This document shows, piece after piece, positions 739-15,563 of a stretch of DNA of 18,527 nt (the first letter of the stretch is position 1; every line of letters starts with the position of its first letter). Under the pieces are notes generated by a model. The model had not been told where the DNA came from. It was given only the letters and a program-made list of their open reading frames with translations, and searched no databases. Source of the stretch: Gemmatimonadales bacterium (GTDB taxonomy: Bacteria > Gemmatimonadota > Gemmatimonadetes > Gemmatimonadales > GWC2-71-9); contig JBDIWC010000066.1 of assembly GCA_039794085.1 (NCBI GenBank), positions 1 through 18,527 on the forward strand, written 5' to 3'. Position numbers and translations under genes: made by a program.

Positions 739-1572
739 ATGGCCAGAGTGATTGCAATCGCAAACCAGAAGGGGGGCGTCGGCAAGACCACGACCGCCGT
801 CAACCTTGCGGCCTCTCTCGCCATCGCGGAACGGAGGACGCTCCTCATCGATGCCGATCCCCAGGGGAACGCCACCAGCGGTGTCGGGATCGCGCGGGAT
901 GACCGCGAGGCGTCCCTGTACGATGTGATGATCGAGGGACGGCCTCCCGCGGAGGTGATTCGCGAGAACACCGAGCTTCCCTATCTGCATGTTCTCCCCG
1001 CAACCCAGGATCTCGTGGGGGCGGAGATCGAACTCGTGGATCGACCGGGCCGTGAGCAGGTGCTGCGCGCGGCGATCGCACCGGTTCAAGCCTCGTATGA
1101 TTTCATCGTGGTGGACTGTCCTCCCTCCCTCGGCCTGATCACGCTCAATGTTCTGGCGGCGGCGGACGCGGTGATCATCCCGATCCAATGCGAGTACTAC
1201 GCCCTGGAGGGCATGAGCCAGTTGCTGAACACGGTGCGGCTGGTGCAGCAGAACTTCAACCCGGCGCTCGCGATCGACGGGGTGCTCCTCACCATGTATG
1301 ACTCGCGGCTCAACCTCTGCCGCCAGGTGGCGGAGGACGCCAAGGAATACTTCGGGTCCCAGGTGTTCCGGACTGTGATTCCGCGGAACGTGCGGCTGGC
1401 CGAGGCGCCAAGTTTCGGCAAGCCGATCCTGCTGTATGATGTGCAGTCGGCCGGCGCCAAGAGTTACCTCGCGGTGGCACAGGAGCTCCTCCGGCGGGTC
1501 GCGCACGGGAAGTCTCCCTCACACTCTCCTGCCTCTCCTGCCTCTCCTGCCTCGTCGGAGGTGAAGTCATGA
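739..1572 (+). CDS. parA: Chromosome partitioning ATPase ParA/Soj (277 aa)
   Basis: MARVIAIANQKGGVGKTT deviant Walker A, DADPQGNAT, DCPPSLG, EYYALEG and IPRNVRLAEAPSFG motifs. Start reassigned to ATG 739 because the upstream ORF extension crosses repeats and parS. Confidence 0.97.
   Translation: MARVIAIANQKGGVGKTTTAVNLAASLAIAERRTLLIDADPQGNATSGVGIARDDREASLYDVMIEGRPPAEVIRENTELPYLHVLPATQDLVGAEIELVDRPGREQVLRAAIAPVQASYDFIVVDCPPSLGLITLNVLAAADAVIIPIQCEYYALEGMSQLLNTVRLVQQNFNPALAIDGVLLTMYDSRLNLCRQVAEDAKEYFGSQVFRTVIPRNVRLAEAPSFGKPILLYDVQSAGAKSYLAVAQELLRRVAHGKSPSHSPASPASPASSEVKS
1525..1551 (+). repeat. In-frame 9-bp tandem repeat (TCTCCTGCC)x3 encoding SPASPASPA at the ParA C-terminus
   Basis: Three perfect copies read directly from the sequence. 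Confidence 0.9.
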
Positions 1573-2474
1573 GCGAAACCCGCCGCCTCGGTCGCGGGCT
1601 CGAGGCCCTGCTCGGTCCGCTCTCCCGGGAGGAGACCGCTCCGGGAACCGCCCTCGCCGACCTGCCCGTGGGGGCCATCGGATCCAATCCGTTCCAGCCC
1701 CGGCAGCACTTCGACGAGTCGGCGTTGAACGAGCTGGCCAGTTCGATCAAGGCCTCCGGGTTGCTCCAGCCACTGGTGGTGCGGCAGAACGGCTCCCGCT
1801 ATGAGCTGATCAGCGGCGAGCGGCGGTGGCGCGCGGTCCAGCGCCTCGGGTGGGCATCCGTCCCCGCCGTGGTGCGCGAGGCGGACGACCGGGCGATGCT
1901 CACCCTGGCGCTCATCGAGAACCTGCAACGCGATGACCTCTCGGCCATCGACACCGCGACGGGGTACCAGCGCCTCATCGACGAGTTCGGTCTTCCGCAT
2001 GGGGAGATCGCCCGGCTCGTGGGCAAGAGCCGCACCGCCATCTCCAATACCCTCCGCCTCCTGGCGCTCCCCCGCGAGGTCCAGACCATGGTGCAGGAGG
2101 GCGCCCTTTCCGAGGGGCATGCCCGTGCGCTACTCGGAATCGGCGAGGCCAGCGAACAGATCCGCGTGGCCCGGGCGGTGGTGGAAGGGGGATTCTCCGT
2201 CCGCGACACCGAGGCACTCATTCGGGGTGAAGGCCCGGCCGCCGTGGCCATCGGGTCGGCGGAGCGACCCCGCCGAAAGATCTCCGCCCGCAAGCCCCTG
2301 CCCAGCACCGCTGATGCCCGACGGGTCGAAGATGCTCTCCGTGCCCGGCTCGGGACCGACATCCGGCTCACGGCCCGGCGGAAGGGACGGGGGACGCTTG
2401 CGATCTCCTATTATTCCAACGACGACCTGGCGAGGATTCTCGAGATCATCCTCGGCCACCCCTTCGACGGATGA
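1569..2474 (+). CDS. parB: ParB/Spo0J partitioning protein
   Basis: N-terminal RRLGRGLEALL ParA-interacting peptide, NPFQPR, GLLQP, ISGERRWRA (CTPase arginine patch), ALIENLQRDDL and HTH region. Overlaps the parA stop by 4 nt. Confidence 0.97.
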   Translation: MSETRRLGRGLEALLGPLSREETAPGTALADLPVGAIGSNPFQPRQHFDESALNELASSIKASGLLQPLVVRQNGSRYELISGERRWRAVQRLGWASVPAVVREADDRAMLTLALIENLQRDDLSAIDTATGYQRLIDEFGLPHGEIARLVGKSRTAISNTLRLLALPREVQTMVQEGALSEGHARALLGIGEASEQIRVARAVVEGGFSVRDTEALIRGEGPAAVAIGSAERPRRKISARKPLPSTADARRVEDALRARLGTDIRLTARRKGRGTLAISYYSNDDLARILEIILGHPFDG

Positions 2475-3268
2475 CCCCGCGGCGGTCGGTTTCCCTGATC
2501 CTCCATGTGGATGGATCACCGGCATCGCGGACCCTGCGGTTTCCCCTCTGGGTTGTTCGGCTGGCGGTGGGAGGATCCATCGGCATCATCCTGCTGCTCC
2601 TGGCGGGGGTCAGCTTCTACGCGCCTCTTGCCCGGCAGGCGGCGCGGGTGCCGGGACTCGAGCAGGAACTCGAACGCCTCCGGACCGACAATGCGACGAT
2701 CCGGGATCTCGCCGCCACCCTCGATAGCGTGGAGTCGCGGTATGCGCGGTTGCGGGAGGTGATCGGGACCGAGGTGGCGCCGGATCCCCTGGCTCTCGGT
2801 TCCGATCTCCCGGTTGCCGCCGCGGTGCTGGCCCGGGTGGCGGGCCAGATACCCCGGTATGAATCGGGACCGTCGATCCCCAGTCACTGGCCGCTCGATG
2901 AGGCGGGGTACATTACGCGTGGTGTCGTCGGAGCGGGGGGGAGTGGTGCGGAGGACCCCCACCCGGGTCTGGACATCGCGGTGCCGGTCGGGTCGCTGGT
3001 CCGGGCGGTGGGTGGGGGCGATGTGGTGCAGACCGGACAGGATCCGGAGTATGGGATCTTTGTCCTCATCGGTCACCCCGGGGGGTACACCTCGCGCTAT
3101 GGACACCTCTCGGCGATCACGACACGGCAGGGGACCACCATCAATGCGGGCGAGGTTCTCGGCCGTTCGGGGAACACCGGACGGTCGAGCGCCCCGCACC
3201 TTCACGTGGAAATCCGCAAGGACGGCGCCGTGGTCGATCCCACGACGCTCATCAAGGAGGGCCGATAA
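2471..3268 (+). CDS. M23-family metallopeptidase, membrane-anchored with coiled coil
   Basis: N-terminal TM helix, coiled coil (LEQELERLRTDN...), HPGLD (HxxxD), YGHL and GRSSAPHLHVE (HxH) zinc motifs. ATGA overlap with parB. Confidence 0.93.
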   Translation: MTPRRSVSLILHVDGSPASRTLRFPLWVVRLAVGGSIGIILLLLAGVSFYAPLARQAARVPGLEQELERLRTDNATIRDLAATLDSVESRYARLREVIGTEVAPDPLALGSDLPVAAAVLARVAGQIPRYESGPSIPSHWPLDEAGYITRGVVGAGGSGAEDPHPGLDIAVPVGSLVRAVGGGDVVQTGQDPEYGIFVLIGHPGGYTSRYGHLSAITTRQGTTINAGEVLGRSGNTGRSSAPHLHVEIRKDGAVVDPTTLIKEGR

Positions 3269-3269
3269 C

Positions 3270-3704
3270 ATGGGCATTTTCACAGGAACCACCAACGGGC
3301 GTGAGACCGGACACGCAGCCCGCACTCCCGGCCGGGGAGACCTCGGCGGGGCGGGAGGGGGAGGAGGGCTGTCGATCGTGGCGCCCGATCTCGTCATCAC
3401 GGGTGATCTGGCGGCCGAGGGTGTCATCAAGGTGGAGGGTCGGGTGCAGGGGACGGTGCGCGCGGGCCATCAGGTGTTGGTGTCGCCCGGGGCGGTGGTG
3501 GAGGGGGATATTGAGACCCGGGAAGCGATCATCGGGGGAGTCGTCCGGGGGGACATCCGGGCCGCCGACCGCGTGGAACTCCAGAGCTCCAGCGAGGTCC
3601 ACGGCAACATCCGGACGGCACGCCTGCTCATCCACGAAGGGGGTGTGGTGAACGGGGAGGTCCGGATGGAGGGAGAGTCGCCCGCGGACTCGGGGGAGGC
3701 GTGA
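3270..3704 (+). CDS. Bactofilin (polymer-forming cytoskeletal protein, CcmA/DUF583-like)
   Basis: Beta-helix repeats (SIVAPDLVITGDL...IKVEGRVQGTV...VEGDI...VRGDI...VHGNI...GGVVNGEVRM). AAGGAGG RBS at 3254-3260 supports ATG 3270 rather than the ORF-track start at 2814. Confidence 0.92.
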   Translation: MGIFTGTTNGRETGHAARTPGRGDLGGAGGGGGLSIVAPDLVITGDLAAEGVIKVEGRVQGTVRAGHQVLVSPGAVVEGDIETREAIIGGVVRGDIRAADRVELQSSSEVHGNIRTARLLIHEGGVVNGEVRMEGESPADSGEA

Positions 3705-4660
3705 TGAGGGGACGCCTGGTGCTGGTGCTGGCCATTCTCCTCACAGGGTGTGGCGGCAGCGCTCCGGTGGACGACGGGTTCCGTGTGGCGCTGGTGACGC
3801 CGGGCTCGGTGGCGGACGCGGCCTGGAACAGCGGCGCCTGGGCGGGACTCAACCGGATCCGGGATTCTCTCGACGTTCCGATCAGCCACGTCGAGGCGCG
3901 CACTCCCGCCGAACAGGAGGAGGCCCTCCGCACCTACGCGGCCCAGGGGTACGATCTCATCTTCGGGCATGGGTTCGAGTTCCAGGACGCCGCGGAACGG
4001 GTGGCGGCGGAGTACCCGGAACCGGTGTTCGTGATCACGAGTGGTCAACGGGTGTCCGGGAAGGTGGTTCCGCTGATCTTCCGGTTTTCGGAGGCCACCT
4101 ATCTGGCGGGAGTGGTGGCGGGATCGCTCACCCGTACCGGGCGGATCGGGTTCGTGGGAGGGATCGAACTTCCGCCGGTCAAAGAGGGCTACGAGGCGTG
4201 GGTGGCCGGTGCTAGGTCGGTCCGGCCCGACGTCGACAGCCGGGTGACCTACCTCAACACCTTCGACGATGCGGTGGCCGGCCGGGAGGCGGCGCTGGCC
4301 ATGATGCAGCTCCGGGTGGACATGCTTCACCACAACGCCGATGCGGCCGGGCTTGGCGTGTTCCAGGCGGCCAAGGAGAAGCCGGGGGTGTACGTGTTCG
4401 GCGCCAATGCTGACCAGAGCGGGCTCGCTCCCGACCGGGTGCCGGGGTCGGCGGTGATCGACCTTGCCCGGGCCTTTCTGGCCGTGGCCCGGGAGGTGCG
4501 CAGCGGGGATTTTGTGCCCACCGTGAAGACCTTCGGGCTCGCGAGTGGTGTGGTGCGGTTCGTGGAGAACCCCGCCCTGGCCGATCTCTTCACGCCCGAG
4601 ATCCGGGCGCGGGTTGACGCGGCACGGGATTCCATCGAGGCCGCTGGAAAGACGCGGTGA
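3701..4660 (+). CDS. BMP/Med-family substrate-binding lipoprotein (often nucleoside-binding)
   Basis: Lipobox LTG-C, PGSVADAAWN, GYDLIFGHGFEF, YLAGVVAG, IGFVGG, GLGVFQAAKE. Confidence 0.9.
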   Translation: MMRGRLVLVLAILLTGCGGSAPVDDGFRVALVTPGSVADAAWNSGAWAGLNRIRDSLDVPISHVEARTPAEQEEALRTYAAQGYDLIFGHGFEFQDAAERVAAEYPEPVFVITSGQRVSGKVVPLIFRFSEATYLAGVVAGSLTRTGRIGFVGGIELPPVKEGYEAWVAGARSVRPDVDSRVTYLNTFDDAVAGREAALAMMQLRVDMLHHNADAAGLGVFQAAKEKPGVYVFGANADQSGLAPDRVPGSAVIDLARAFLAVAREVRSGDFVPTVKTFGLASGVVRFVENPALADLFTPEIRARVDAARDSIEAAGKTR

Positions 4661-5313
4661 CCGACGCACCACCCACCCCGGAACGCTCTCAGACGGTTGG
4701 CGAGGAGATCGCCAACAGCATCAGCCATGGGGCCGGGTTCGCGGCGGCCCTCGTCGCCACCCCGTCCCTGATCGCCGATGCCGTGACAACCGGCAGCACC
4801 TACTTTGTGGTGGGTGTCGCGGTCTTTGCCGTCACCGTGGCTCTCCTTTATCTCGGCTCCACACTCTACCATGCCCTGCCGCACGGTAAGGCCAAGGAGA
4901 CCTCTCGGCTGATCGAGCACAGTGCCATCTACCTTCTCATCGCGGGGACCTACACCCCGTTCACGCTCGGCGCGCTGCGCGGGCCCGTCGGGTGGACGCT
5001 GCTCGGCGTGATCTGGACCCTGGCCCTGGTGGGTGTTCTCCTCCAATCGAGGGACGCGCACCGCTTTCGGCGGGTCTCAATGGCCCTGTACCTCGGGATG
5101 GGGTGGCTCATGGTGGTGGCGATCCGCCCCCTCTGGGTCCATGTGCCCCTCGCGGGTCTCCTGTGGCTTCTGGCGGGAGGGATCGCCTACACGGTCGGGG
5201 TGGGGTTCTACCGGGCCCGGCAGCTTCGGTACGCCCACTTCATCTGGCACCTGTTCGTCCTGGCGGGAACGGCGAGTCACTACATGGCAATTCGGTTCTA
5301 CGCGATGCCATAG
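4657..5313 (+). CDS. Hemolysin III / PAQR (TrhA-like) membrane protein
   Basis: EEIANSISHG, STLYH, EHSAIYLLIAGTYTP, YLGMGW and HFIWHLFV motifs, with about 7 hydrophobic segments. Confidence 0.95.
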   Translation: MTDAPPTPERSQTVGEEIANSISHGAGFAAALVATPSLIADAVTTGSTYFVVGVAVFAVTVALLYLGSTLYHALPHGKAKETSRLIEHSAIYLLIAGTYTPFTLGALRGPVGWTLLGVIWTLALVGVLLQSRDAHRFRRVSMALYLGMGWLMVVAIRPLWVHVPLAGLLWLLAGGIAYTVGVGFYRARQLRYAHFIWHLFVLAGTASHYMAIRFYAMP

Positions 5314-5445
5314 GTTCTGTTGCCCTCACCCCCGGCCCCCTTGTCGCGAGGCGGCACCAGCCGCCGTGGCGATCGCTACTCCCGCGGGACGGCAGATGGG
5401 AGTCACTTCCTCGGTCATGTCGATGTCCACGCCGGGACCTGCCGC

Positions 5446-6066
5446 TCACCTCAGCGTGGCCAAATAGGCCAGGACAGCCTCGATCTCCTCGGGCGTGAGG
5501 CCGAAGTTCGGCATCATCGAGGTTGCTCTGTCAAACGTCGGATTGGCGAGCTTCCGGCGCAGGAAGTCGGGACTCCGGCGACCGGTCACGCCGTCGAGCG
5601 TGGGCCCAACGTTGGCACCTTTCCCTTTGATCATGTGACACCCGACACACCCCTTCCCTTCCACGATGCTGCGTCCGGCGTCCGCCAATTCCGGTCGAAT
5701 CGGGGCCTCCGTGTATTCCGCTGGTGGACGCGCGAGATCCCCCGGGGGGACTTGGCCGGGGTCGCCGTTGGTGGCCTGAAGAAACGCCAGGACGTGACGC
5801 ACCTGCCCCCCCGTCAGATTGGCCCTGATCCGCATGTGGTTGATGACCGTGACCCAGTCCCGATCGCTGCGCTCGAGTGGCGAGCGCGGGTTGTGACACC
5901 GACCGCACATGTTGCCGTACACCGCGGCCCCGGCGGTGACCGGGCTCATCTGCTGTCCCGGCAATTCCGAAGCCCCCAGAAACGCGGACACGGCCACGGT
6001 CGTGATGCCGGCCAGGACGGCGCGAACGAACATGGAGGGTCGGCGGTTCTTCTTCCTGTCGATCAT
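5446..6066 (-). CDS. Exported diheme c-type cytochrome
   Basis: Signal peptide. First heme site CGRCH followed by W...HM. Second site CVGCH...GPTL...MMPNF, a class I domain with probable Met ligand. Confidence 0.9.
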   Translation of the reverse strand: MIDRKKNRRPSMFVRAVLAGITTVAVSAFLGASELPGQQMSPVTAGAAVYGNMCGRCHNPRSPLERSDRDWVTVINHMRIRANLTGGQVRHVLAFLQATNGDPGQVPPGDLARPPAEYTEAPIRPELADAGRSIVEGKGCVGCHMIKGKGANVGPTLDGVTGRRSPDFLRRKLANPTFDRATSMMPNFGLTPEEIEAVLAYLATLR

Positions 6067-6076
6067 TGTGTCCTCC

Positions 6077-7198
6077 TCAGAAGCCGAATGCGACGTGCAC
6101 GAGGAATCGGTCGTTGTCCAGCTCCGGGCCGTCCTCGCGATTCAACTCGAACCCGGCCATGACGGCGACGGTCGGACTGAACCAGTAGTCCAGTCCGATC
6201 CCGGCCTGCCAGGCGCCGGGACGGGTCGTGGTGTCGCCAATCTTGTCGTCGAACACCTGGGTCCACCGGAGTACGGGTTCCCATTGGGCCACTCGATAGG
6301 CGGCTTGCGCGTAGAAGCCGTGCCTCCGCAGTGTCGGGAACGCGGTCAAAGTCTCTATCTCCTGGCGGACCTGCAGGTACTCACCGCGGAGCTCGAACCC
6401 CGAACGACGAAACTCGGCGGCGAGATTCCATCCGGTGAAGTCGAGGTTGCTCTCGGAGTCGTAGTCGCTGTTCAGGAACGAACCACTGACTTCGAACCAG
6501 GGTGGCAACGCGATGTCCAGTCGGAGGCCGGGCATCTTGGCCGTGTTGTTATCGCCGGAGCTGGCGGGGAAGGTCAACTCGGGCGCCTCGAAATCCTCTC
6601 CGACGTCGACCGCGTCCGGAAATTCCCCTTCCAGTTGAGGCCCCTGGGTCAGATAGCCATTCAAGCTCAGTTGCCAGTCACCCACCGGCACGGTTGCGCG
6701 CCCCATCACGCCGATGTCGGTGAGAATCGACATCAGCGGCTTGGCACCGAATTGTGCCACGTGATGGCCGTACAGTGGAGGAGGACTGGGAAACTTGTTG
6801 ATCCAGGTTGGATGGAGACGTTCGCCGAACACGCCGAAGGGCACGAGGAACTTGCCTGCCGTGAACGTGAGATGGTCGGTCGCGACATAGTCGAGCTGCG
6901 CGTACTCGAGCCCGGTTTCGGTGACCCCCTCCTGCAGTTCGAACTCGAATTCCGCTTCGAACAGGATCCGGTCCTGGAACTGGAACAACATGATGGGGTT
7001 GAAGCTGGCCGTGAACTGGTTCTCGTTCTCGCCTTCAGTGCGAAGGCCATAGCCGACCGTTCCGTAACCTGTCAGCACGAAGGAATGCGTCGGGACAATG
7101 CGCATTATCGTTGGCTCGTCGTCCGCTCGTGCGTCCTGTGCCTCGATCGCCCTCGGAAACGCGAGCAGAACCATGATGGCAAGAGGACGTGCACGCAT
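6077..7198 (-). CDS. Outer-membrane beta-barrel (porin-like) protein
   Basis: Signal peptide ending AIEA, amphipathic beta-strands (LEYAQLDY, FTAGKFLVPFG, FELRGEY, GFYAQAAY) and C-terminal HVAFGF beta-signal. Start is 7198 or 7219; the ORF-track start at 7339 overlaps the upstream gene. Confidence 0.82.
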   Translation of the reverse strand: MRARPLAIMVLLAFPRAIEAQDARADDEPTIMRIVPTHSFVLTGYGTVGYGLRTEGENENQFTASFNPIMLFQFQDRILFEAEFEFELQEGVTETGLEYAQLDYVATDHLTFTAGKFLVPFGVFGERLHPTWINKFPSPPPLYGHHVAQFGAKPLMSILTDIGVMGRATVPVGDWQLSLNGYLTQGPQLEGEFPDAVDVGEDFEAPELTFPASSGDNNTAKMPGLRLDIALPPWFEVSGSFLNSDYDSESNLDFTGWNLAAEFRRSGFELRGEYLQVRQEIETLTAFPTLRRHGFYAQAAYRVAQWEPVLRWTQVFDDKIGDTTTRPGAWQAGIGLDYWFSPTVAVMAGFELNREDGPELDNDRFLVHVAFGF

Positions 7199-7208
7199 GC
7201 GCCACAGT

Positions 7209-8018
7209 CTAGTGCCCATGACCGGCTCCATTGTCTTCGGCTGGTGGGGGGGCGTCGCTCGCGGACGGAACCCGGATGTGGAACTCGGAGTGCTCGTCGT
7301 CCTCCTGCCCTTCGTTGGCCTCGTCGTGTCCCGTTCCATTCGCGAGGCCGACCTGGAGGCTATAGGTGCCGGCGGTCGGGAAGACGGCCTGACCCACGTA
7401 CTCGCCGTGTCCTCGTTCGGCCCAGGCGATCATGACCATGGTTCCATCGGGGAGGTGCAGCGAACCCGCAAGCTGCAGGTCGTGCGCCTCGGGGCCCTTG
7501 CTGCCGTCCGCTTCCAGCTCGAAGGCGAACGCATGGAGCAGCGCCAGTCCGCCCGGAAGAATGGGAGCGGGGCTGGTTTCGAGCTCGAATCGGTGACCAT
7601 CGACCATAATGTGGGCGCGCGCGGCCGTGATTTCGTGCTCCCAGAGATCCATCATCAAATGATGCCCGGGGGCCTGTCCACGCAATCGGAGGTGATGTTC
7701 TCCGGCGGCGTAGAGATATACCGGGGCGTGCCATTCGCCGTCCACCTCCTCGATCGGTATACGTTGGGCGGGCGCTCCTCCGGGGGGGAGCACGTCGAAC
7801 TCCAGGCGCGACATGTGGGTGGGATCACTCCCCGAAGACACCTGAAAGTGAAACTCGTTGGATGTGAGTGTGTGCATGTGGCCAGGAAACTCGACATTCA
7901 CGGCCAGGTTCAGGTCCGAGAGTGCTGTCGGGTTGTCCAGGCCGGCGCAGCTCGCAAGGCCGACGGCAACGGTTGCCGCGCGGAGGGCCGCGATCCAGTC
8001 TCGGGGGTTCATGGTCAT
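7209..8018 (-). CDS. His-rich lipoprotein with two YtkA/FixH-like Ig-type repeats; candidate copper chaperone
   Basis: Lipobox LAS-C24, AGGAG RBS, 21 His in 269 aa (GHMH, EHH, GHHLMM, terminal HGH). Internal similarity between GEWHAPVYLYAAGEHHLRL and GEYVGQAVFPTAGTYSLQV. Confidence 0.6.
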   Translation of the reverse strand: MTMNPRDWIAALRAATVAVGLASCAGLDNPTALSDLNLAVNVEFPGHMHTLTSNEFHFQVSSGSDPTHMSRLEFDVLPPGGAPAQRIPIEEVDGEWHAPVYLYAAGEHHLRLRGQAPGHHLMMDLWEHEITAARAHIMVDGHRFELETSPAPILPGGLALLHAFAFELEADGSKGPEAHDLQLAGSLHLPDGTMVMIAWAERGHGEYVGQAVFPTAGTYSLQVGLANGTGHDEANEGQEDDEHSEFHIRVPSASDAPPPAEDNGAGHGH

Positions 8019-8087
8019 CTCGTCTCCTGTGGTGGATTCAATTGGTAGCTGTCCGCCTCGAGCTTGAGTGCTCCTGACATCGGACCT

Positions 8088-8534
8088 TCAGTTCCCCTCG
8101 CGGCTCGGACTCGCTCTCTCGGCCACGACGATCGTGCCCTTCATTCCCATCGCTTGGTGGGGTGTACAGACGAAGGCGTAGGTGCCCGGGGAAAAGCGGT
8201 CGTCGATCCGGAGCTCGTAGGCCTCGCCCCTGGTCATCAGGAAGGGGCCCATTCGGGCGTCATCGAGCTGAGCTCCCGGGGGCAGCGTCTTGAATTCGAC
8301 GTTGTGGGGGACTCCACCCTGCTGGACGAACCGGATCGTCTGGCCCGGGGTCACGGTGATGAGCGATGGCTCGAAGGCGTAGCTGGTGGCCGACTTGTCG
8401 ATCATCTGGATCACGACGATGTCCGTCTCTGCTTCCGTGATGGTTCTGGTGGACGCGGTGGCCTGAGCCTGTGCACCAGATGCGGTCAGGATCGTCGCGA
8501 CCGTGAGCATGAGGGTCCTGGTGGTTCCTGGCAT
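8088..8534 (-). CDS. Plastocyanin/azurin-family type-1 blue copper protein
   Basis: Signal peptide (AQA), FEPSLITVTPGQT, PHNV and C-x2-H-x4-M (CTPHQAMGM). GGAGG RBS precedes ATG 8534. Confidence 0.92.
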   Translation of the reverse strand: MPGTTRTLMLTVATILTASGAQAQATASTRTITEAETDIVVIQMIDKSATSYAFEPSLITVTPGQTIRFVQQGGVPHNVEFKTLPPGAQLDDARMGPFLMTRGEAYELRIDDRFSPGTYAFVCTPHQAMGMKGTIVVAERASPSREGN

Positions 8535-8592
8535 TTCCCTGTCCTCCGTGTGGCGTGATCGTCCGTTTGAACGCGCGGTCGAGGAATGGCTT

Positions 8593-8609
8593 CGCAGGAG
8601 ATATGCCGG
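8593..8609 (-). promoter_or_regulatory. Candidate sigma-54 (-24/-12) promoter
   Basis: Minus strand reads CCGGCATATCTCCTGCG: GG-N10-GC with GGCA and TGC cores. It lies ~60 bp upstream of the cupredoxin start, and a sigma-54 activator is encoded nearby. Confidence 0.72.
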
Positions 8610-8703
8610 TGGGGCGGGGCCTGATGAAACTTCCATAACTACAGGCAGGTCAGTCGGTTGCGGAGACGATGCCGCTCGAGCGACGGAAGGGAGGAGGGGA
8701 AAC

Positions 8704-8743
8704 TGTAACCCCCACCGTCCCAGGTGGGGCGAGGAGCGTCACA
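8704..8743. promoter_or_regulatory. Two tandem imperfect palindromes, candidate enhancer (UAS) for the NtrC-type regulator
   Basis: TGTAACC-N5-CGTCCCA (8704-8722) and TGGGGCG-N5-CGTCACA (8725-8743) both fit TGTGACG-N5-CGTCACA. They are 21 bp apart centre to centre and ~100-135 bp upstream of the -24 element. Confidence 0.55.
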
Positions 8744-8768
8744 CCGACTTGGAGGGGGGGGACGGGTC

Positions 8769-10232
8769 TCAGAACGCCACGTCGAGACGCAGCCAGAGGT
8801 TGTGGGGTCGGTTGAGGCCCGCCTGGCTGGTCTCGGAATGCCGCAGGAAGAATTCGCCCTCCATCACCAAGCGGACGTTCTGGCGCAGCAGCAGGATGAC
8901 CCCCGGGAGCACACGAGTCGACTCGGTTGGGGGAGGAGCGGCGGAGACGTCCGGGGGGAGATCGCTTGCGAGCACCTGGATCCGCTCGGCCTTGAGCGAA
9001 CCGATGATCCACGGGAGGGCCAGATACTCGGAGCGGGCGAAGACACTCTCCACTTCGAGGTGTCCCGTGGAGACATCGGGCCAGGGTTGCGCAAAGTTCC
9101 GGATCACGTAGCCCGCGCCGAGGTCCAGGCGTCCCAGCAGCGCGCGAGCCGCGAGGCCGAACGCCGTGTGCTCCCCTTGGGGAGCGCTCTCCGTCGATTC
9201 GTTTCCCAGATAGCCGAAGTGCTCGAGGATGAGAGCGTGGTCAAGGAGCTGACCGGTGAGGGTCTGTGCCGGTGCCTGCGCTGAACCGTAGGAGCCGGTG
9301 AGATCCAGCCCGCCGACCTTGTAGCGCATGGTGTAATAGAGATCCTTTCGCCCGTTCCGATCGGTCGCGCCATCTCCGCGACCCTGCGAAAGGCCGACTC
9401 CGAAGTGGAGGCGTCGCCCGATGAGGCCGTTGAGTTCGACGGCCGGCTGGGAATGGTCGAGCATGAGGTCGTTGTCGGTCCGGAATGGCTCGGCCACGTC
9501 GCTCTTGCGCAGCTCCACCTCGGATGCTTCGAACGTCTGCCAGAGGAAGGGTTGACGCGCCACAAGGTCGATGTGTTGATGGGCGAAGGTCATCAGGTAC
9601 GGATCCAGCAGGCCGACCCTGAGATTCAGCATTCGCGCCGGAAGTCCGGGGATGGGATCCCGGAACTCCACCTTCGCCTGGTGGATCTCCACCCCGTTGT
9701 CGGGGCTCCACCCCGCGTCGAGGAAGACGGAAACCTCCTTGCCCAGAGGGGCACCGGCGAGGAGTTGGATTTCGTCTGGAAATTGGTATGTGGCGTCGTA
9801 GGGAAGCCGCTCGTCCCGGGTGACCCGGGCGTCGGACACGATTCGAAGCGCGAGTGGAACGAATCCCGGGAGATCGCTCGACCGGATGGATCTCGGCCAC
9901 GCCTCGTCCCATTCCGGTGCGCCCAGTGAGACCGGATCATCCTTCCGAACCACGAGCTTGGTCGAGGGCATCCGATATCCGTTCAGGCGGAACACTTCGC
10001 CGAACACGTTCAATTTCGGAGCTGCCGTGTGACATGTGGAGCACGCGGTTCCGTACATCCGGGAAAAGGCCGGGATCGACACGTCGTGGTATCCGGTCGG
10101 CGCGATGACACGTGCCGGTGCCGAGTCAGCACGCCCGGAGGGTCTTGTCGGCACGGCGGCTGCCGACAGGACCGCGACCGCCGAGAGGGTCAGGGCCACG
10201 GTGTCGCGGAGACTCGACGGCCCGGTGCTCAT
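8769..10232 (-). CDS. Cyc2-like fused monoheme cytochrome c / outer-membrane beta-barrel
   Basis: IPAFSRMYGTACSTCHTAAPKLNVFGEVFRLNGY (aa 53-86) resembles the Cyc2 N-terminal PxFAR...CxxCH...PxL..FG..F...GY motif. Single CxxCH, long beta-strand-rich C-terminus ending RLDVAF. Confidence 0.8.
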   Translation of the reverse strand: MSTGPSSLRDTVALTLSAVAVLSAAAVPTRPSGRADSAPARVIAPTGYHDVSIPAFSRMYGTACSTCHTAAPKLNVFGEVFRLNGYRMPSTKLVVRKDDPVSLGAPEWDEAWPRSIRSSDLPGFVPLALRIVSDARVTRDERLPYDATYQFPDEIQLLAGAPLGKEVSVFLDAGWSPDNGVEIHQAKVEFRDPIPGLPARMLNLRVGLLDPYLMTFAHQHIDLVARQPFLWQTFEASEVELRKSDVAEPFRTDNDLMLDHSQPAVELNGLIGRRLHFGVGLSQGRGDGATDRNGRKDLYYTMRYKVGGLDLTGSYGSAQAPAQTLTGQLLDHALILEHFGYLGNESTESAPQGEHTAFGLAARALLGRLDLGAGYVIRNFAQPWPDVSTGHLEVESVFARSEYLALPWIIGSLKAERIQVLASDLPPDVSAAPPPTESTRVLPGVILLLRQNVRLVMEGEFFLRHSETSQAGLNRPHNLWLRLDVAF

Positions 10233-10858
10233 GGGGACGTGGTCTCCACCAGCCGACCCGGCCGGGAGAGGTTCAGGACGAGTCCTCGCGCTCCGGCTGC
10301 GGGGACCACCAGCGTCTCGTGCCGTGGTTCGGACCCCCGTCGCCAGACGTTCAGATGGTAGGTACCCGGGGGAACATCGGGGATTCGGAACAGACCCCCG
10401 GTGTCAGTCACCGCGTAATACGGGGTGGTGACCACCACCACGTACGCGAACATCTCCGGATGCACGTGGCAGAGGATGACGTGGAAACCGGGTTTCGTGA
10501 ATGTATGGTTCCGACTCGTGTTCGATGGATACGTTCCGAGATCGAACGCTTCGCCCTCCCCTCCGGGGCTGAACACATTGTGGAGAATCGGGTCGCTGTT
10601 GAGGAAGTGTACGGTGAGTCCCGGACGTCCAACGACGACCGGCGGGAGGAAGCGGAGCCGGCTCTGGTCGATCACGGTCGTGTCGACGCTGGGGGTGGGT
10701 TCTGCAGCGGCACTCTCGCTTTCGAGGTACAGTACGACACCGTCGGCCGGGTGTCCTGCGATCAGCACGACGCCGTCGATTCCACCTTCCTGGCCGAGGA
10801 TTGGGGCGGGAAGGAGCAGGAGCAACATGAGGACAGCGCCCGGTCTAGCGCGTTTCAT
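10229..10858 (-). CDS. Exported MauL-like cupredoxin with carboxypeptidase-regulatory-like beta-sandwich
   Basis: Signal peptide, IDQ...FLP, NSDPILHNVFS, FDLG, C-x2-H-x2-M (CHVHPEM), C-terminal TDTGGLFRIPDVPPGTYHLNVW. Start reassigned to MKRARP (10858). Confidence 0.82.
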   Translation of the reverse strand: MKRARPGAVLMLLLLLPAPILGQEGGIDGVVLIAGHPADGVVLYLESESAAAEPTPSVDTTVIDQSRLRFLPPVVVGRPGLTVHFLNSDPILHNVFSPGGEGEAFDLGTYPSNTSRNHTFTKPGFHVILCHVHPEMFAYVVVVTTPYYAVTDTGGLFRIPDVPPGTYHLNVWRRGSEPRHETLVVPAAGARGLVLNLSRPGRLVETTSP

Positions 10859-12266
10859 CGGTCTTCCTTTCGTTCTGCGCCTCTTCCAGTTCGGCAAGCC
10901 ACCGGTGGATGGTGCGACGGTGGACACCGGCGGCCCTGGCGGCCTGCGAGACGTTGCCGTCGTGGGCTTCCAGCAGCCGCTCCAGGTAGGCGGCGTGGAA
11001 GGTGCGCACGGCCTCCTTCCGGGCGCTGTCGTAACTCAGGTGTGACCCGGGGTCCCCGAGCGCGGCGTGCTCGCTCGGATAGACGCCCGGCAACGAGTTC
11101 TCGGTCAGAAGGTCCCCGGCCACGATCAGCCCGTCCTCGTCCAGCACGACAAGGCGCTGAATGACGTTCCGGAGTTGTCGGATGTTCCCCGGCCAGTTGT
11201 ACCGCTCCAGGATCCGCCACGCCTCGGGAGAGACCCTGGGCACCTTTTTTCCGACGGACGCGGAGAATTGCTCCAGAAAGTGTCCGGCCAGCAGGGGGAC
11301 GTCGCCGGTTCGATCCCGCAGGGGGGGCAACGCGATCTCGACGACGTTGAGTCGGTAGTAGAGGTCTTCACGAAAGCCACCTACCTGGAGGGCCTCGCGG
11401 AGGTTGGCATTCGTCGCCGAGACGAGTCGGATGTCCACATCAAGGAGGCGGGAGTCACCCAGGCGCCTCAGCTGACGTTCCTCGAGCACCCGAAGCAGCT
11501 TGGACTGGAGCGGCACGCTCAGTTCGCCGATCTCATCCAGAAAGAGCGTCCCGCCGTTGGCCCCGACGATCAGCCCGTCTCGCCGGGACACCGCCCCGGT
11601 GAAGGCTCCCTCGGCGTGGCCAAAGAGCTCGCTCTCCAGGAGATTTTCCGGCAGGGCCGCGCAGTCGACGGGAATGAAGGGCCCCTCGGATCGCCCGCTC
11701 ATGTCGTGCACCAGGCGCCCGAGGAGCTCCTTCCCCGTGCCGCTCTCACCGGTGATGAGAACATTGACCTCGGTGCGCGCGACCTTTCGGGCACGCTCCA
11801 GAACGCGTTCGAAGGCGGGACTCGTCCCGATCGCGGCCGGCGCGCGCGGTCCCCGGCGAATCTCCTCCCGCAGCCTGCGGTTCTCCAGAGTCAAGTGGCG
11901 GTGGCGCACGGCTCGTTGCACCGCCACCAGAAGTTCGTCGACCGTGAAGGGCTTGGTCAAATAGTCGAACGCGCCCTCGTGCATCGCATCGACGGCGGAG
12001 GACACGGAGCCGTACGCCGTGATGAGAATGACAGGGAGGGCCGGATCGTCGGCCCGGGCCGCGGCCAGGATCGTCATGCCGTCGGCCCGTGGCATGCGGA
12101 GGTCCGTGATCAGGACGTCCGGATTCACCTCGCTCCGCAGTGAGCGGAATCGGCTCGGGTCGGGGAGTGTCCAGCAGCGATACCCCTCGGATGAGAGCAT
12201 GCGGTCAATGTTCTCGAGCATTTCGGGCTCGTCGTCGAGGATCAGAACGCGCGCCTGGTCATTCAT
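10845..12266 (-). CDS. Sigma-54-dependent NtrC/AtoC-family response regulator
   Basis: REC domain (LDDE, TDLRMP, KPF), AAA+ domain (GESGTGKE, ELFGHAEGAFTGA, LFLDEIGE, FREDLYYRL, WPGNIRQL) and Fis-type HTH (GNVSQAARAAG). Confidence 0.97.
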   Translation of the reverse strand: MNDQARVLILDDEPEMLENIDRMLSSEGYRCWTLPDPSRFRSLRSEVNPDVLITDLRMPRADGMTILAAARADDPALPVILITAYGSVSSAVDAMHEGAFDYLTKPFTVDELLVAVQRAVRHRHLTLENRRLREEIRRGPRAPAAIGTSPAFERVLERARKVARTEVNVLITGESGTGKELLGRLVHDMSGRSEGPFIPVDCAALPENLLESELFGHAEGAFTGAVSRRDGLIVGANGGTLFLDEIGELSVPLQSKLLRVLEERQLRRLGDSRLLDVDIRLVSATNANLREALQVGGFREDLYYRLNVVEIALPPLRDRTGDVPLLAGHFLEQFSASVGKKVPRVSPEAWRILERYNWPGNIRQLRNVIQRLVVLDEDGLIVAGDLLTENSLPGVYPSEHAALGDPGSHLSYDSARKEAVRTFHAAYLERLLEAHDGNVSQAARAAGVHRRTIHRWLAELEEAQNERKTDETR

Positions 12267-14544
12267 CGCTCATCCCCGGAAAACATGGAAAGCCGACGAC
12301 GAATACCGCTCCCGTCCCGTTGCCCCCGACCAGGTTGATCGTGCCCCCGTGGCGCTCCATCAGTGCCCGGCAGACCGCCAGCCCGAGCCCGGTTCCTCCC
12401 CGGTCGGCCTTCGTGGTGAAAAAGGGCTGGAAGATCCGGTTGCGGAACTCGTCCGGCACTCCGGGACCGTTGTCCCGGACCTCGATCTCGACGCATGTGG
12501 ATCTGCCCCTGGTGCGAGTCGTCACGGTTATCACCCCTCCGGGTGCACACGCCTGCTGGGCGTTCAGGAGCAGGTTCACCAGGACCGTCTCCACCGCCGT
12601 GGCGCTGGCCACAACGCACGGGAGATCGTCGCCCAGACGGATCTCCAGCCGTACGCCTTCGGGAGCCACGACCCGGTTGAGGAGCCGCGCGACCTGGACC
12701 ACCACGTCATTTACCTGGAGGGAGGACATCTCCTTGGTGTCGTCGCGTGCGAACCGGAGCAAGTCTCCCGTGATCGAACCGATCCGGCGCACCTGCTCGC
12801 GCAGGACCGCGAGGTCCTTGCGGAAAAGGTCCCCCGTGTCGGAGCGCAACGCCTCGCGTTGCATGAGTTCGAGGCGGTTGTCGAGAACCGCCACCGGGTT
12901 GTTCAGTTCGTGGGTCAGCCCGGCGGCCATCACGCTCATGGCGGACAGGCGTTCGGAGCGCAGCATCTGCTCCTGAATCTGTTCCTGCACGCGCGTGTCC
13001 CGGAAGATCACCGACGAGCCGGTGAGGGCACCTTCCTCATCCTCGAGCAGGGTTTGCGTGATGCCCACCGGCACCAGCTCGCCGGATTTCGTCTTCCGCG
13101 TTGTCTGGTGTGCGATCACGGCCCCGGACTCCTGGACGGTTTGACGGAGATACACCTGCTCTCGACGGTTGCGTGGACTCTCCGGGAGAATCAGGTCGTC
13201 CAGATACCGGTCCAGGGCCTCGTCGGAGGTGAATCCAAACAGCCGCTCCGCACCCCGGTTCCAGAGGCGAATGCGGCCGGCGGAATCGAGGCCGACGATC
13301 CCGTCGGCTGACAGGGAGACGATGCGTGAGAGTTCGGTCTCGGTCCGCCGCAATTCACGCGTTCTCTCCTCGACGGCGGACTCGAGGCGTCGGCGATGCC
13401 GGTCCACTTCGGCGGCCATCTGCTCAAAGTCCTCGGAGAGATCCTGGATCTCATCATTCGTCTCGATGTTCAGTGGCTCGTGAGACGCACCTCCGGTCAC
13501 CCGCCGGGCCGCTCTCTGGAGAAGGTGCAGGGGCCGGGTGATCTGGCGCGCCGCCACGACCGCGACCCCCAGCACGGAGAGCGCGATGAAGAGCGCGGCC
13601 AGCCCGATGGCGCCGAGGAACTGGCGCACTGATCCACCAAGTGACGCCTGGGAAAAGGTGCGGTAGAGCGCGAAGGGAGAGACCGGGAGTCCCGGCACCT
13701 GCAGGGGGCGGTAGGTCACGACGACCCCATCCTCCGTTCGGACCGTACCGACATCCCCCGAGAGGACCGCCGTGGCGACGGACTTCGGAAGGTCGCTGGC
13801 AATGCTCTCCTCGTTCCGGCGCGCGAGGAGCGTCGCCCAATCCCGCTTCCGGCGAGTGTGGTAGAAAAAGCGCCCCGCCCCGTCCACCAGGCCGGTGACA
13901 CCGGCCACGTCAGGAGAGGCGCGATCGATCTCCCTGAAGATGCTGGCCGCCAACGCTTCGCCGACGACGGCCCCTCTCACCCGGCCCGCCGCGTCATGGA
14001 CGGGCCGCACGACCGCGACGGCGGGAATGAGTCCGGTGCCGGCCCCGTTCCGGAGCTCCACCGGGACCAGTCTCGTCGCTCCCTGCTCCAGTTCCGAGGC
14101 CACCCAGAGGTAGAACGGTTGAGTCGTCCCAGTTGCGTCCACGTCCCCGGTGCCCGGTCGCCGGGCGTCGGCGACGACCTGCCCCCGTGAATCCACCGCC
14201 TTCACACGGAACAGCGCCGAGGAATCGGCCACCAGATATTTCTGCACGGCCGCGGCCAGATTCCCTCCCGACACCCGATCTCCCTGCAGGATGCGGTCCG
14301 CCATGCCGAGATCGGCGATGTAGCCGACCTGTTGCACCAGATCGCCAAGAGACCGAGCCGTCCGCTGCCCGACCGTCTCAAGATCGTGTTCCAGAAGATC
14401 GCGCTCCCGCGCACGCATCTGCTGCACCGTGAAGAACGCCCCCACGGTGCTCACCAGGGTCAGCGGCACAAGCGCCAGAAGAACGAAAGCGATCGCGAGC
14501 TTCGCGGTCAGGCCCAAGCGGGGAAACAGGCGGTTCAGATTCAC
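12259..14544 (-). CDS. Membrane sensor histidine kinase (periplasmic Cache-like, HAMP, PAS, HisKA, HATPase)
   Basis: Two TM helices flanking a ~275 aa periplasmic domain, HAMP (ITRPL...NDEIQDL), PAS (WNRGAERLFG), H-box HELNNP, N-box NLLLNA, DNGPG, PFFTTK and GTGLGL. GTG start. Confidence 0.95.
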   Translation of the reverse strand: MNLNRLFPRLGLTAKLAIAFVLLALVPLTLVSTVGAFFTVQQMRARERDLLEHDLETVGQRTARSLGDLVQQVGYIADLGMADRILQGDRVSGGNLAAAVQKYLVADSSALFRVKAVDSRGQVVADARRPGTGDVDATGTTQPFYLWVASELEQGATRLVPVELRNGAGTGLIPAVAVVRPVHDAAGRVRGAVVGEALAASIFREIDRASPDVAGVTGLVDGAGRFFYHTRRKRDWATLLARRNEESIASDLPKSVATAVLSGDVGTVRTEDGVVVTYRPLQVPGLPVSPFALYRTFSQASLGGSVRQFLGAIGLAALFIALSVLGVAVVAARQITRPLHLLQRAARRVTGGASHEPLNIETNDEIQDLSEDFEQMAAEVDRHRRRLESAVEERTRELRRTETELSRIVSLSADGIVGLDSAGRIRLWNRGAERLFGFTSDEALDRYLDDLILPESPRNRREQVYLRQTVQESGAVIAHQTTRKTKSGELVPVGITQTLLEDEEGALTGSSVIFRDTRVQEQIQEQMLRSERLSAMSVMAAGLTHELNNPVAVLDNRLELMQREALRSDTGDLFRKDLAVLREQVRRIGSITGDLLRFARDDTKEMSSLQVNDVVVQVARLLNRVVAPEGVRLEIRLGDDLPCVVASATAVETVLVNLLLNAQQACAPGGVITVTTRTRGRSTCVEIEVRDNGPGVPDEFRNRIFQPFFTTKADRGGTGLGLAVCRALMERHGGTINLVGGNGTGAVFVVGFPCFPGMSDE

Positions 14545-14691
14545 GACTCGTCCCTGGATGCCTTCCGTTCAGCGACGGGCATCGCGGTGGCCTGGCGTCC
14601 TCAACCAGAAATCGTCTTCTGGGACGGAGGCCCGCCGAGAACTGACGTTCTCATGCAGTGGCGGTCGGGTTGGGGTCTTGTGGTTCCTGCA

Positions 14692-14707
14692 TGTGACCAC
14701 CGTAACA
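14692..14707. promoter_or_regulatory. CRP/FNR-family-like box upstream of the kinase operon
   Basis: TGTGA-CCACCG-TAACA matches TGTGA-N6-TCACA at 9/10 positions. It sits next to an AT-rich patch and a minus-strand TTGACG (14754-14749). Confidence 0.35.
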
Positions 14708-14788
14708 GGAGAACCCCGTCAATAGATATATCCTGTTGCAGGCGCATGCGTCAACCTGCACGTGCTGGCGGGGGATCGCCTGTGAGGT

Positions 14789-15382
14789 TCACAGGGCGGG
14801 GGGGCATTCTCCGGATTGACCGGGGAGTCGCCGTACTCGATCCCATTCCCGTTCGACGCCGAGGCGCCGGGCCCAGCGCTCCACCTCCCCATGATTAACC
14901 AGGTCCCCGCTGATGCGGAGCATATGCCTGATGTCCGTCAGGTGCCGATCGGATCCTCCCATCTGGAAATAGCGGAGCTTGCTCACAATGACCGCTTCGA
15001 TCGGGGCGACACGGACCTCGTCGCCTTCAACGTGCCGCAGGGCAGGGTGCCGCAGGGCCCAGGAATTAAGGGGATCCTCACCGGACAGATAGATATCCGC
15101 CCGCATTGCCGTTTCATGATGGCTGACGTTGAAATGGCCGTGTGCAGGGCGCCGACTCTCCTCCCCGATGACTTCCACCGGCGGGACATAGAACTCCCCT
15201 GATGGCCACGCTGCCGCGAAACGGTCGGCGTCCCCTGTCTGCAACTGGACAATCAGGTCGATGTCCCGGGTGAAACGCGGTTCTCCGTAGATCACGGAGG
15301 CCACGCCTCCAGTGATCAGATAGGGAATGCCCAGCTGGTTGAGGGGTCGGACGAACAGGGCAATGAGGCTAGGGTCGGTCAT
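14789..15382 (-). CDS. Pol-beta-superfamily nucleotidyltransferase (DUF6036/AbiEii-like), putative toxin
   Basis: YLITGGVAS..YGEPRFTRDIDL motif, RADIY and later KL...G.D.H..DI motifs. Confidence 0.75.
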   Translation of the reverse strand: MTDPSLIALFVRPLNQLGIPYLITGGVASVIYGEPRFTRDIDLIVQLQTGDADRFAAAWPSGEFYVPPVEVIGEESRRPAHGHFNVSHHETAMRADIYLSGEDPLNSWALRHPALRHVEGDEVRVAPIEAVIVSKLRYFQMGGSDRHLTDIRHMLRISGDLVNHGEVERWARRLGVEREWDRVRRLPGQSGECPPAL

Positions 15383-15563
15383 GACGGAAGAACTCGCGGA
15401 CGGCGGCTTTCACCTCCTCCTCGGACCAATCCGGATGGTGACCCCGCACGCCGGCCTCCTTCAGCGACCACGCTTGCCGCCACAGGGAGTGCATGACGGC
15501 CACCTTCTCGGTGGCGGTCATGGCGCGGAGCCGAGCAACCTCGAGATCGAGAACCGATGGCAT
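15369..15563 (-). CDS. Small helical protein (64 aa), putative antitoxin or partner of the nucleotidyltransferase
   Basis: LRAMTATEK...AGVRGHHPDWSEEEV pattern. Overlaps the NTase start by 14 nt and fills the gap between same-strand genes. Confidence 0.7.
   Translation of the reverse strand: MPSVLDLEVARLRAMTATEKVAVMHSLWRQAWSLKEAGVRGHHPDWSEEEVKAAVREFFRHDRP

Follow-up and report, generated by a model that had tools for sequence, protein, structure and literature searches.

A conserved sigma-54 regulatory head with a Cyc2-like haem-porin carries interchangeable, mostly redox payloads in Gemmatimonadota

Contig C66 of a 4.16-Mb Gemmatimonadales genome is the 18,527-nucleotide stretch analysed here and called the window. 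At 5446-14544 it carries a block of eight minus-strand genes, which encode a sensor kinase, a sigma-54 activator, two cupredoxins, a Cyc2-like haem-porin, a lipoprotein, a second beta-barrel, and a diheme cytochrome c. An original prediction, made from the sequence alone, had read this block as one self-contained, sigma-54-regulated electron-transfer module. Here we find that the block is built of two units, a regulator-plus-haem-porin head and a four-gene payload, split by a 234-base-pair (bp) regulatory gap, and that in relatives the same fixed head carries swappable payloads. As to function, the chances seem to us about even that the block encodes an inducible conduit for electrons across the outer membrane, equipped with its own copper loader and feeding oxidases encoded elsewhere in the genome.

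Results

Two units separated by a gap

All eight predicted genes are present and co-oriented, and their domains match those that had been listed. The first four overlap by 8, 14, and 4 bases. After the fourth, cyc2, there is a gap of 234 bp (8535-8768), followed by four genes spaced by 69, -11, and 10 bp. The original prediction, whose overall interpretation is supported in part, had missed this split. We corrected the starts of CupA (10858), the plastocyanin (8534), and the porin (7219), and read export signals by eye; in the Cyc2-like protein, the putative signal is a hydrophobic N-terminal stretch. Along the minus strand, the features are:

12259..14544, minus strand: sensor histidine kinase, head gene 1 (Pfam domains, orthologues)
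10845..12266, minus strand: sigma-54 enhancer-binding response regulator, head gene 2 (domains, GAFTGA present)
10229..10858, minus strand: CupA, an amicyanin-like cupredoxin with a carboxypeptidase-regulatory-like domain, head gene 3 (Pfam, alignment)
8769..10232, minus strand: Cyc2-like monoheme cytochrome-porin fusion, head gene 4 (motifs, alignment, model, Foldseek)
8725..8743, minus strand: enhancer palindrome 1, TGTGAC-N7-GCCCCA, predicted head-regulator site (footprinting)
8704..8722, minus strand: enhancer palindrome 2, TGGGAC-N7-GTTACA, 21 bp after site 1 (footprinting)
8593..8608, minus strand: candidate sigma-54 -24/-12 element, GG-N10-GC, 7/12 positions (similar position in relatives)
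8088..8534, minus strand: exported plastocyanin-like type-1 copper protein, payload gene 1 (Copper-bind)
7209..8018, minus strand: acidic, His-rich, YtkA-like lipoprotein, payload gene 2 (YtkA match, C-terminal H-G-H)
6077..7219, minus strand: acidic 16-strand OprP/OprO-like porin without haem motif, payload gene 3 (model)
5446..6066, minus strand: basic exported diheme cytochrome c, payload gene 4 (domains, predicted His/Met hemes)

The same eight-gene order recurs in two other metagenome contigs: L084, whose copy has a monoheme cytochrome at its end, and L085, where the order is kept up to the end of the contig. The idea that the head and the lipoprotein-porin-diheme triad meet in the window alone was dropped after these two loci. 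A groundwater relative keeps 5409-14799 on a single contig, with 440 letters differing, and near-identical DNA was found in one hot-spring study, possibly its source. Among the loci from named relatives, 29 of 30 are Gemmatimonadota, which bears out the phylum suggested for the host. An RNA-library run (X5) covers the block evenly, intergenic DNA included, much as DNA run X6 does, and so gives no evidence of transcription; runs X12 and X13 cover the block only by scattered short pieces.

A fixed head joins a two-component system to CupA

Our set of head loci comprises 11 anchored on Cyc2 (nine from 400 genomes of the phylum and two from the first 60 relatives) and 17 new ones anchored on the kinase. 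The Cyc2-anchored loci keep the order kinase-regulator-CupA-cyc2 as far as contigs and gene calls show; the kinase of L074 is cut off, and the regulator genes of L077 were found only in a later pass. CupA stands behind the regulator in all 17 kinase-anchored loci, and the distance between the two genes is -8 to +11 bp in each of the 16 relatives' loci with both genes called. In the window, the CupA start overlaps the stop of the regulator gene. Thirteen of the 17 have a Cyc2 orthologue, one locus is truncated, and three lack the gene. Where cyc2 is missing (L113, L115, and L117, and also L105), CupA stays, and the enhancer described below is kept in three of the four. A conserved neighbourhood, proposed earlier as a check, is therefore found: the genes co-occur in both sets of loci as well as in L084, L085, and the groundwater relative.

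Pfam assigns HAMP, PAS, HisKA, and HATPase domains to the kinase, along with a dCache match that falls below the cut-off, and an HxH motif is absent from residues 40-310 in all seven head kinases listed. The regulator combines a receiver, a Sigma54_activat domain (AAA+ with GAFTGA), and HTH_8, a Fis-type helix-turn-helix. Head regulators cluster together and have a common recognition-helix pattern of the S/H-RR-T/S-x-x-RW type. CupA matches amicyanin best, and all 18 aligned homologues keep its type-1 ligands H93, C130, H133, and M136 unchanged.

A separate palindrome, TGTTA-N6-TCACA, which we take to be CRP/FNR-like, lies on the minus strand at 14692-14707, some 150 bp before the kinase on its upstream side. 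It may control the head in the host; by eye, it has no clear conservation in relatives.

A predicted internal sigma-54 switch stands before the payload

Comparison of the gaps after cyc2 revealed a palindrome, TGTGAC-N7-GTCACA, which mostly occurs in tandem at a spacing of 20-21 bp. A GG-N10-GC element stands 102-144 bp behind the first palindrome in the window and in relatives. The consensus for this enhancer was derived from three relatives with perfect copies (L016, L079, and L082). The window tandem (8704-8743) is the best 21-bp tandem match in the host genome, at 4 mismatches with the next at 6, and none of 1000 shuffles reaches its score. Ten of the 12 gaps tested pass at no more than 1/300 shuffles, three of them by construction. 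L079 fails at a fixed spacing of 21 bp, which is explained by its 20-bp spacing; the enhancer was not found in the short gaps tested of L074 and L081, and L017 has no gap after cyc2. Among the testable kinase-anchored loci, none of which define the consensus, 10 of 12 have the enhancer after cyc2 at no more than 1/60 shuffles, and the two that fail have sites further downstream. In whole genomes, the switch site is the sole perfect palindrome in three of the five scanned, and the other two have a one-mismatch site at the switch, among 4 and 17 such sites. These patterns lead us to predict that the tandem palindromes are the binding site of the head regulator.

The switch site was detected by footprinting only: a plain sigma-54 consensus search performed at chance (12 matches, 14.7 expected) and missed it. 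A scan of the window for sigma-70 promoters and terminators was also at chance. At least 6 of 17 relatives have an enhancer upstream of the kinase (in L106 and L109 the sites lie further upstream), and the notion that the head never stands behind an enhancer was dropped on that account. The window has none upstream of its kinase, where the best tandem has 11 mismatches; thus the payload, and not cyc2, is the predicted sigma-54 target in the host. The sigma-54 control that had been proposed for the whole block therefore holds for the last four genes, behind the footprinted promoter, whereas cyc2 and CupA are coupled to the regulator genes instead.

As a separate matter, contigs C17, C25, C46, and C47 of genome G305 carry many near-identical TGTCAC-N7-GTCACA-type sites, which are probably a dispersed repeat unrelated to the enhancer.

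Payloads behind the head are exchanged between relatives

Four types of payload recur behind the head. Five loci (L016, L079, L082, L114, and L118) have a plastocyanin, an NHL protein, multiheme cytochromes, and a large barrel. Nine others (L074, L076, L077, L107, L109, and L119-L122), some of which end at contig ends, hold a tandem-cupredoxin lipoprotein, cytochromes, and a barrel. The third type, a porin with a diheme cytochrome, occurs in L075, L111, and L112 (partial), and likewise, without cyc2, in L105. The fourth is the window's own type, shared with L084 and L085. What follows the head in a few other loci is only a plastocyanin, DoxX, a multiheme protein, another CupA, or genes of unrelated kinds. 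As in the window, plastocyanin is the first payload gene in L016, L079, L080, L082, L084, L085, and L118. Copper exporters and multicopper oxidases are found in 0 of the 11 Cyc2-anchored and 0 of the 17 kinase-anchored head loci.

The payloads have in common a barrel of the outer membrane, cytochromes of the c type, and type-1 copper. Because most payloads behind the head are cupredoxin, cytochrome, and barrel sets, electron transfer remains the theme of the system, as first suggested. The idea of a self-contained module needs revision: the block does have its own regulator, but it is two units with interchangeable payloads, and its possible electron sinks (caa3, cbb3, and NosZ) lie elsewhere in the genome.

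The head encodes a Cyc2-like haem-porin

The fourth head gene encodes a protein of 487 amino acids (aa) whose sole CXXCH is CSTCH at residue 64, in the setting SIPAFSRMY-GTA-CSTCH-TAA-PKL. In 125 aligned sequences the C, C, and H of CXXCH are invariant, as are P27 and L29 of the PXL downstream (CH-TAA-PKL). The structural model has an N-terminal haem region followed by 16 long strands, with a predicted local distance difference test score (pLDDT) of 89, in agreement with the Cyc2-like fold first proposed. Its Foldseek matches are porins, and no Cyc2 structure is among the matches listed.

As defined in the literature, Cyc2 has a single N-terminal CXXCH with AXPXFAR[Q/K][T/Y] 5 aa upstream and PXL 4 aa downstream, a signal peptide, a 16-strand barrel, and a length above 365 aa; OprP/OprO is the reported modelling template (PMC8406198). 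The window protein resembles these iron oxidases in its single N-terminal CXXCH, PXL, barrel, and length, and by eye it has a putative signal peptide. It differs from them in its upstream motif, SIPAFSRMY, and in the coupling of its gene to a sigma-54 two-component system and a cupredoxin (PMC8406198). Because the strict motif is not present, we file the protein as Cyc2-like and not as Cyc2. The core PXFAR[QK][TY] is exact in 50 of the 125 aligned homologues, and the same spacing is kept in 122.

The wider family is common in the order, as some Cyc2-like haem-porin match occurs in 39 of the 60 related genomes. Cyc2 matches in Gemmatimonadota have been mentioned in print without gene context (PMC11316326). 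Two other arrangements were seen. Loci L018, L025, L028, and L029 hold a different Cyc2-like family (IPSFARQT-type), placed in a conserved gene run with an extracytoplasmic function (ECF) sigma factor, a likely anti-sigma factor, and a second barrel. In L021, a Cyc2-like gene lies directly upstream of diheme, CupA-like, and cox2/cox1-like genes, an arrangement nearer to a rus-type operon than the window is.

The window payload contains a triad usually found in copper islands

The window's second cupredoxin is plastocyanin-like (Copper-bind, 7e-20). The lipoprotein that follows has 269 aa, 21 of them His, is acidic, and carries a LASC lipobox and predicted YtkA-like domain(s); its family has a conserved C-terminal H-G-H. 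All 23 family members match YtkA PF13115 at E<=0.001 (best 2e-14), while the window protein's own score of 22.6 falls below the 25.9 cut-off, and its Atlas match of 0.88 serves as a lead only. The lipoprotein is likely a copper chaperone; in Bacillus, the YtkA/CtaK lipoprotein supports CuA assembly (PMC13344008).

The second barrel is modelled with 16 strands (pLDDT 91), and its best fold match is OprP (Z 27.4, root-mean-square deviation 4.7, 303 aligned); no sequence relatives with a solved structure were found for either barrel. In its family E61/E63/E65/E78 and H109/H125 are conserved. The porin has an isoelectric point (pI) of 4.4, versus 9.1 for the cytochrome. The diheme cytochrome consists of an N-terminal domain with a weak TorC match and a C-terminal class I domain; M78 and M185 are conserved, and His/Met hemes are predicted.

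In 30 porin-anchored loci, the lipoprotein comes before the porin in 23 and the cytochrome after it in 26, and most misses are contig ends. A porin-family gene is present in 7 of 9 genomes with a Cyc2 orthologue versus 29 of 400 overall, counts in which kin are not independent. The range of the porin family outside Gemmatimonadota is given by Atlas leads only. A quick tree of 49 porins places the head-linked ones in three separate subclades, namely that of the window porin and two others; the link between head and porin therefore arose, or was refreshed, more than once.

Gemmatimonadota copper islands appear to have a sigma-54 regulon of their own (L051, L054, L055, L057, L058, L068, L069, L072, L037, and L038), with the enhancer TGGGGCA-NN-TGCCCCA, a kinase with a conserved His plus HxH, and the regulator helix SRDTLRYR. 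In the host, sites of this regulon lie at C26:12186, 20610, 23893, and 35754. The host's copper island is on contig C26, and the triad is not part of it. A distant porin-diheme pair in L038 has an MtrB/PioB-type barrel fragment and several small cytochromes on its flanks.

Discussion

A possible electron conduit

The observations above on gene anatomy, on the layout in two units, on enhancer conservation, and on payload exchange lead us to infer a mechanism in several steps. The kinase would phosphorylate the sigma-54 activator, which would bind the tandem TGTGAC-N7-GTCACA sites and start transcription of the plastocyanin, lipoprotein, porin, and diheme cytochrome genes. Single electrons would be exchanged between the Cyc2-like protein and a dissolved metal, Fe(II) being the likeliest donor by family precedent, and the haem of the protein would pass them to CupA or plastocyanin. 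From the cupredoxins, electrons would move to the diheme cytochrome. The acidic porin and the basic cytochrome may form a second, unfused cytochrome-porin pair, and the cupredoxins would receive their copper from the YtkA-like lipoprotein. The final acceptor of the electrons would be a caa3 or cbb3 oxidase, or NosZ, encoded elsewhere. As the original prediction had stated, no terminal oxidase gene is found by Pfam among the eight. The genome has candidates in two COX1-family genes, on contigs C99 and C3, and in gene blocks that look ccoNO-like and nosZ-like by their motifs and neighbouring genes.

Several results weigh against this conduit. Six head loci (L017, L080, L106, L113, L115, and L117) have little or no redox payload, and cusCBA-like genes, recognised from their N-termini only, lie beside the kinase in L084. 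The -24/-12 match in the window is weak. No inner-membrane partner is encoded in the cluster. Profile comparison gives no sequence homology between the two barrels (probability 0.9%). The Cyc2-like protein departs from the AXPXFAR[Q/K][T/Y] motif, and Keffer et al. regard the function of distant Cyc2 homologues as uncertain (PMC8406198). The further points concern copper.

Competing explanations

That the payload handles copper in the envelope is a possibility we take seriously while doubting it. Here the acidic, His-lined porin would admit or release copper ions, the lipoprotein would buffer copper, and the plastocyanin and diheme cytochrome would oxidise periplasmic Cu(I), as has been suggested for the cupredoxin and cytochrome genes of operons like Myxococcus curA. 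Of 29 triad loci, 13 have copper-resistance genes nearby, versus 1 of 16 other Cyc2-like loci. The count took in copA, cusCBA, copB/multicopper oxidase, PCYCGC, and DUF411 and excluded fragment L071; its queries were drawn from the same loci with self-set identity thresholds, which favours a high count. The remaining 16 triad loci, several of them short, have no copper gene in the available DNA. Copies of the island enhancer TGGGGCA-NN-TGCCCCA stand before the triad and likewise before cusC, copA, and the kinase of the island; the motif is short and common in the host genome, so single sites are weak. The complete plastocyanin-lipoprotein-porin-cytochrome set also occurs beside the island kinase in L102 and L103. 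The window porin groups with those of L044 and L062 (Shimodaira-Hasegawa-like approximate likelihood-ratio test, SH-aLRT, 98), and the L044 porin adjoins copA, copB, and a multicopper oxidase. There is also a precedent in CorSR, which regulates copper genes along with a His-rich cupredoxin and a cytochrome c (PMC3707914).

In the window, however, the triad is detached from the host's copper island. The gap that precedes the lipoprotein gene does not contain the island enhancer, the best match there having 7 mismatches. The window kinase lacks the HxH of the island kinase, no copper exporter or multicopper oxidase is among the eight genes (the host's own are on C26), and the same head drives multiheme conduits elsewhere. 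The copper alternative named in the original prediction therefore has real support for the triad half of the block, whose family sits mainly in copper islands, but we still favour the electron conduit.

CupA, together with the Cyc2-like protein where present, might instead be a sensory front end that reports the redox state of the outside or periplasm to the Cache-like domain, leaving bulk electrons to the payload; we consider this unlikely. Consistent with it, CupA is coupled to the regulator in every kinase-anchored locus, even without cyc2, and the enhancer persists in most cyc2-less loci. The window head has no enhancer upstream, so it would be made at a basal level. On the other hand, the relatives with an enhancer upstream of the kinase would have an inducible head, and the Cyc2 proteins so far characterised are catalysts (PMC8406198, PMC13692758). 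In its boldest form, which we offer as a rather improbable conjecture, CupA and a Cyc2-like antenna would be a receptor for extracellular redox that switches on interchangeable conduit cassettes by way of a single enhancer common to them. In that case, many of the 'cyc2' genes taken for iron oxidases in uncultured bacteria would encode sensors.

The same conduit could run outward, reducing external metals or humics under low oxygen, which strikes us as very unlikely. Porin-cytochrome conduits can be reversible (PMC10734462), the midpoint potential of one Cyc2 is -130 mV (PMC13692758), and the host genome has 16- and 18-haem proteins and nar-like genes. Against outward flow, the cluster lacks a gene for a quinol oxidase partner. 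Type-1 copper and His/Met haems, moreover, are normally high-potential carriers.

Least probable, to the point that we set it aside, is a chance chimera in which a triad from a copper island came to lie behind a regulator foreign to it, with no cooperation between the halves: the window porin is 55-73% identical to copper-island porins and 38-39% to those of L084/L085, and of two same-genus genomes one lacks both barrels and the other has a different payload, yet L084 and L085 repeat the gene order with porins of another subclade, a third subclade stands behind the head in L075, L111, and L112, and the groundwater relative keeps the block on one contig.

Relation to known systems

On the features tested, the inward-running conduit that we favour works like a Cyc2-cupredoxin-cytochrome chain and is not a rus operon, an Mtr/Uet complex, or a cop/cus operon. 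Rus operons include terminal oxidase genes, and the window cluster has no cox genes. The Acidithiobacillus analogy first drawn for the block stands for the kinds of parts and is otherwise loose, given this difference and the strict Cyc2 motif. Like the A. ferrooxidans chain, the locus combines a monoheme porin of the outer membrane with blue copper carrier(s) and a diheme cytochrome (PMC5566968). Unlike that chain as the source presents it, the window has cupredoxins that match plastocyanin and amicyanin and a diheme cytochrome with a different N-terminal domain, and it adds a porin, a YtkA lipoprotein, and a dedicated sigma-54 switch.

The Uet cluster of Tenderiales includes cupredoxin, NHL, and c7 proteins (10.1101/2022.05.06.490989, PMC10734462). 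By Pfam composition only, the payloads of L016, L079, L082, L114, and L118 resemble it in their cupredoxin, NHL repeat, c7-type cytochromes, and large barrel. The window payload differs from Uet, with a 16-strand barrel and a diheme cytochrome and no undecaheme. The Mtr/Mto/Uet systems are marked by about ten or more haems and a barrel of 26-28 strands; window proteins have at most two CXXCH each, and their barrels have 16 strands.

CorSR/curA of Myxococcus xanthus is similar in having a sigma-54 two-component system inside the cluster, internal sigma-54 promoters, and a cupredoxin with a cytochrome c (in curA, a His-rich cupredoxin and an orphan cytochrome c). It differs in that curA has CopA and a multicopper oxidase and, as described, no porins, whereas the window has two barrels and no exporter (PMC3707914). 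CtaK (YtkA) of Bacillus subtilis is likewise a lipoprotein, with the YtkA-like domain that is predicted for the window protein. The window protein, in contrast, comes from a Gram-negative host, has 269 aa, is very His-rich, and is tied to a porin and a cytochrome, not to a caa3 oxidase as CtaK is (PMC13344008). In the literature searched, whose coverage leaves most subscription journals outside, we found no description of the arrangement, the internal enhancer, or the payload, nor of the lipoprotein-porin-diheme triad.

Flanking genes and other observations

On the opposite strand, up to the end of the block (739-5313), lie parA/parB-like genes (from translations), an M23 peptidase, a bactofilin, a BMP lipoprotein, and an HlyIII-family gene. 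A short intergenic element at 5321-5392 is matched by several unrelated contigs in runs X5 and X6 and is probably a dispersed repeat. Upstream of the head, at 14789-15563, an AbiEii-like nucleotidyltransferase and a 64-aa partner are a likely toxin-antitoxin pair; since the groundwater relative's contig diverges at 14799, this pair may be a recent insertion. No tRNA or Rfam family was found in the window. Elsewhere in the host genome, C31:20131-26578 holds 16-, 18-, and 8-haem proteins and a barrel-like gene beside ccm, a candidate porin-multiheme conduit.

Implications

It is routine to score the Cyc2-like genes of uncultured bacteria as iron oxidases when neither their control nor the destination of the electrons is known. 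The locus described here offers a specific regulator, a 40-bp site that it is predicted to bind, and a series of payloads exchanged in nature, which make the inducing signal (Fe(II), Cu, O2, or electrode potential) directly testable by a reporter in a laboratory host. The lipoprotein-porin-diheme triad, for its part, moves between copper-island and redox regulators. It thereby links copper handling to trans-envelope electron transfer, and it may be an unfused counterpart of Cyc2.

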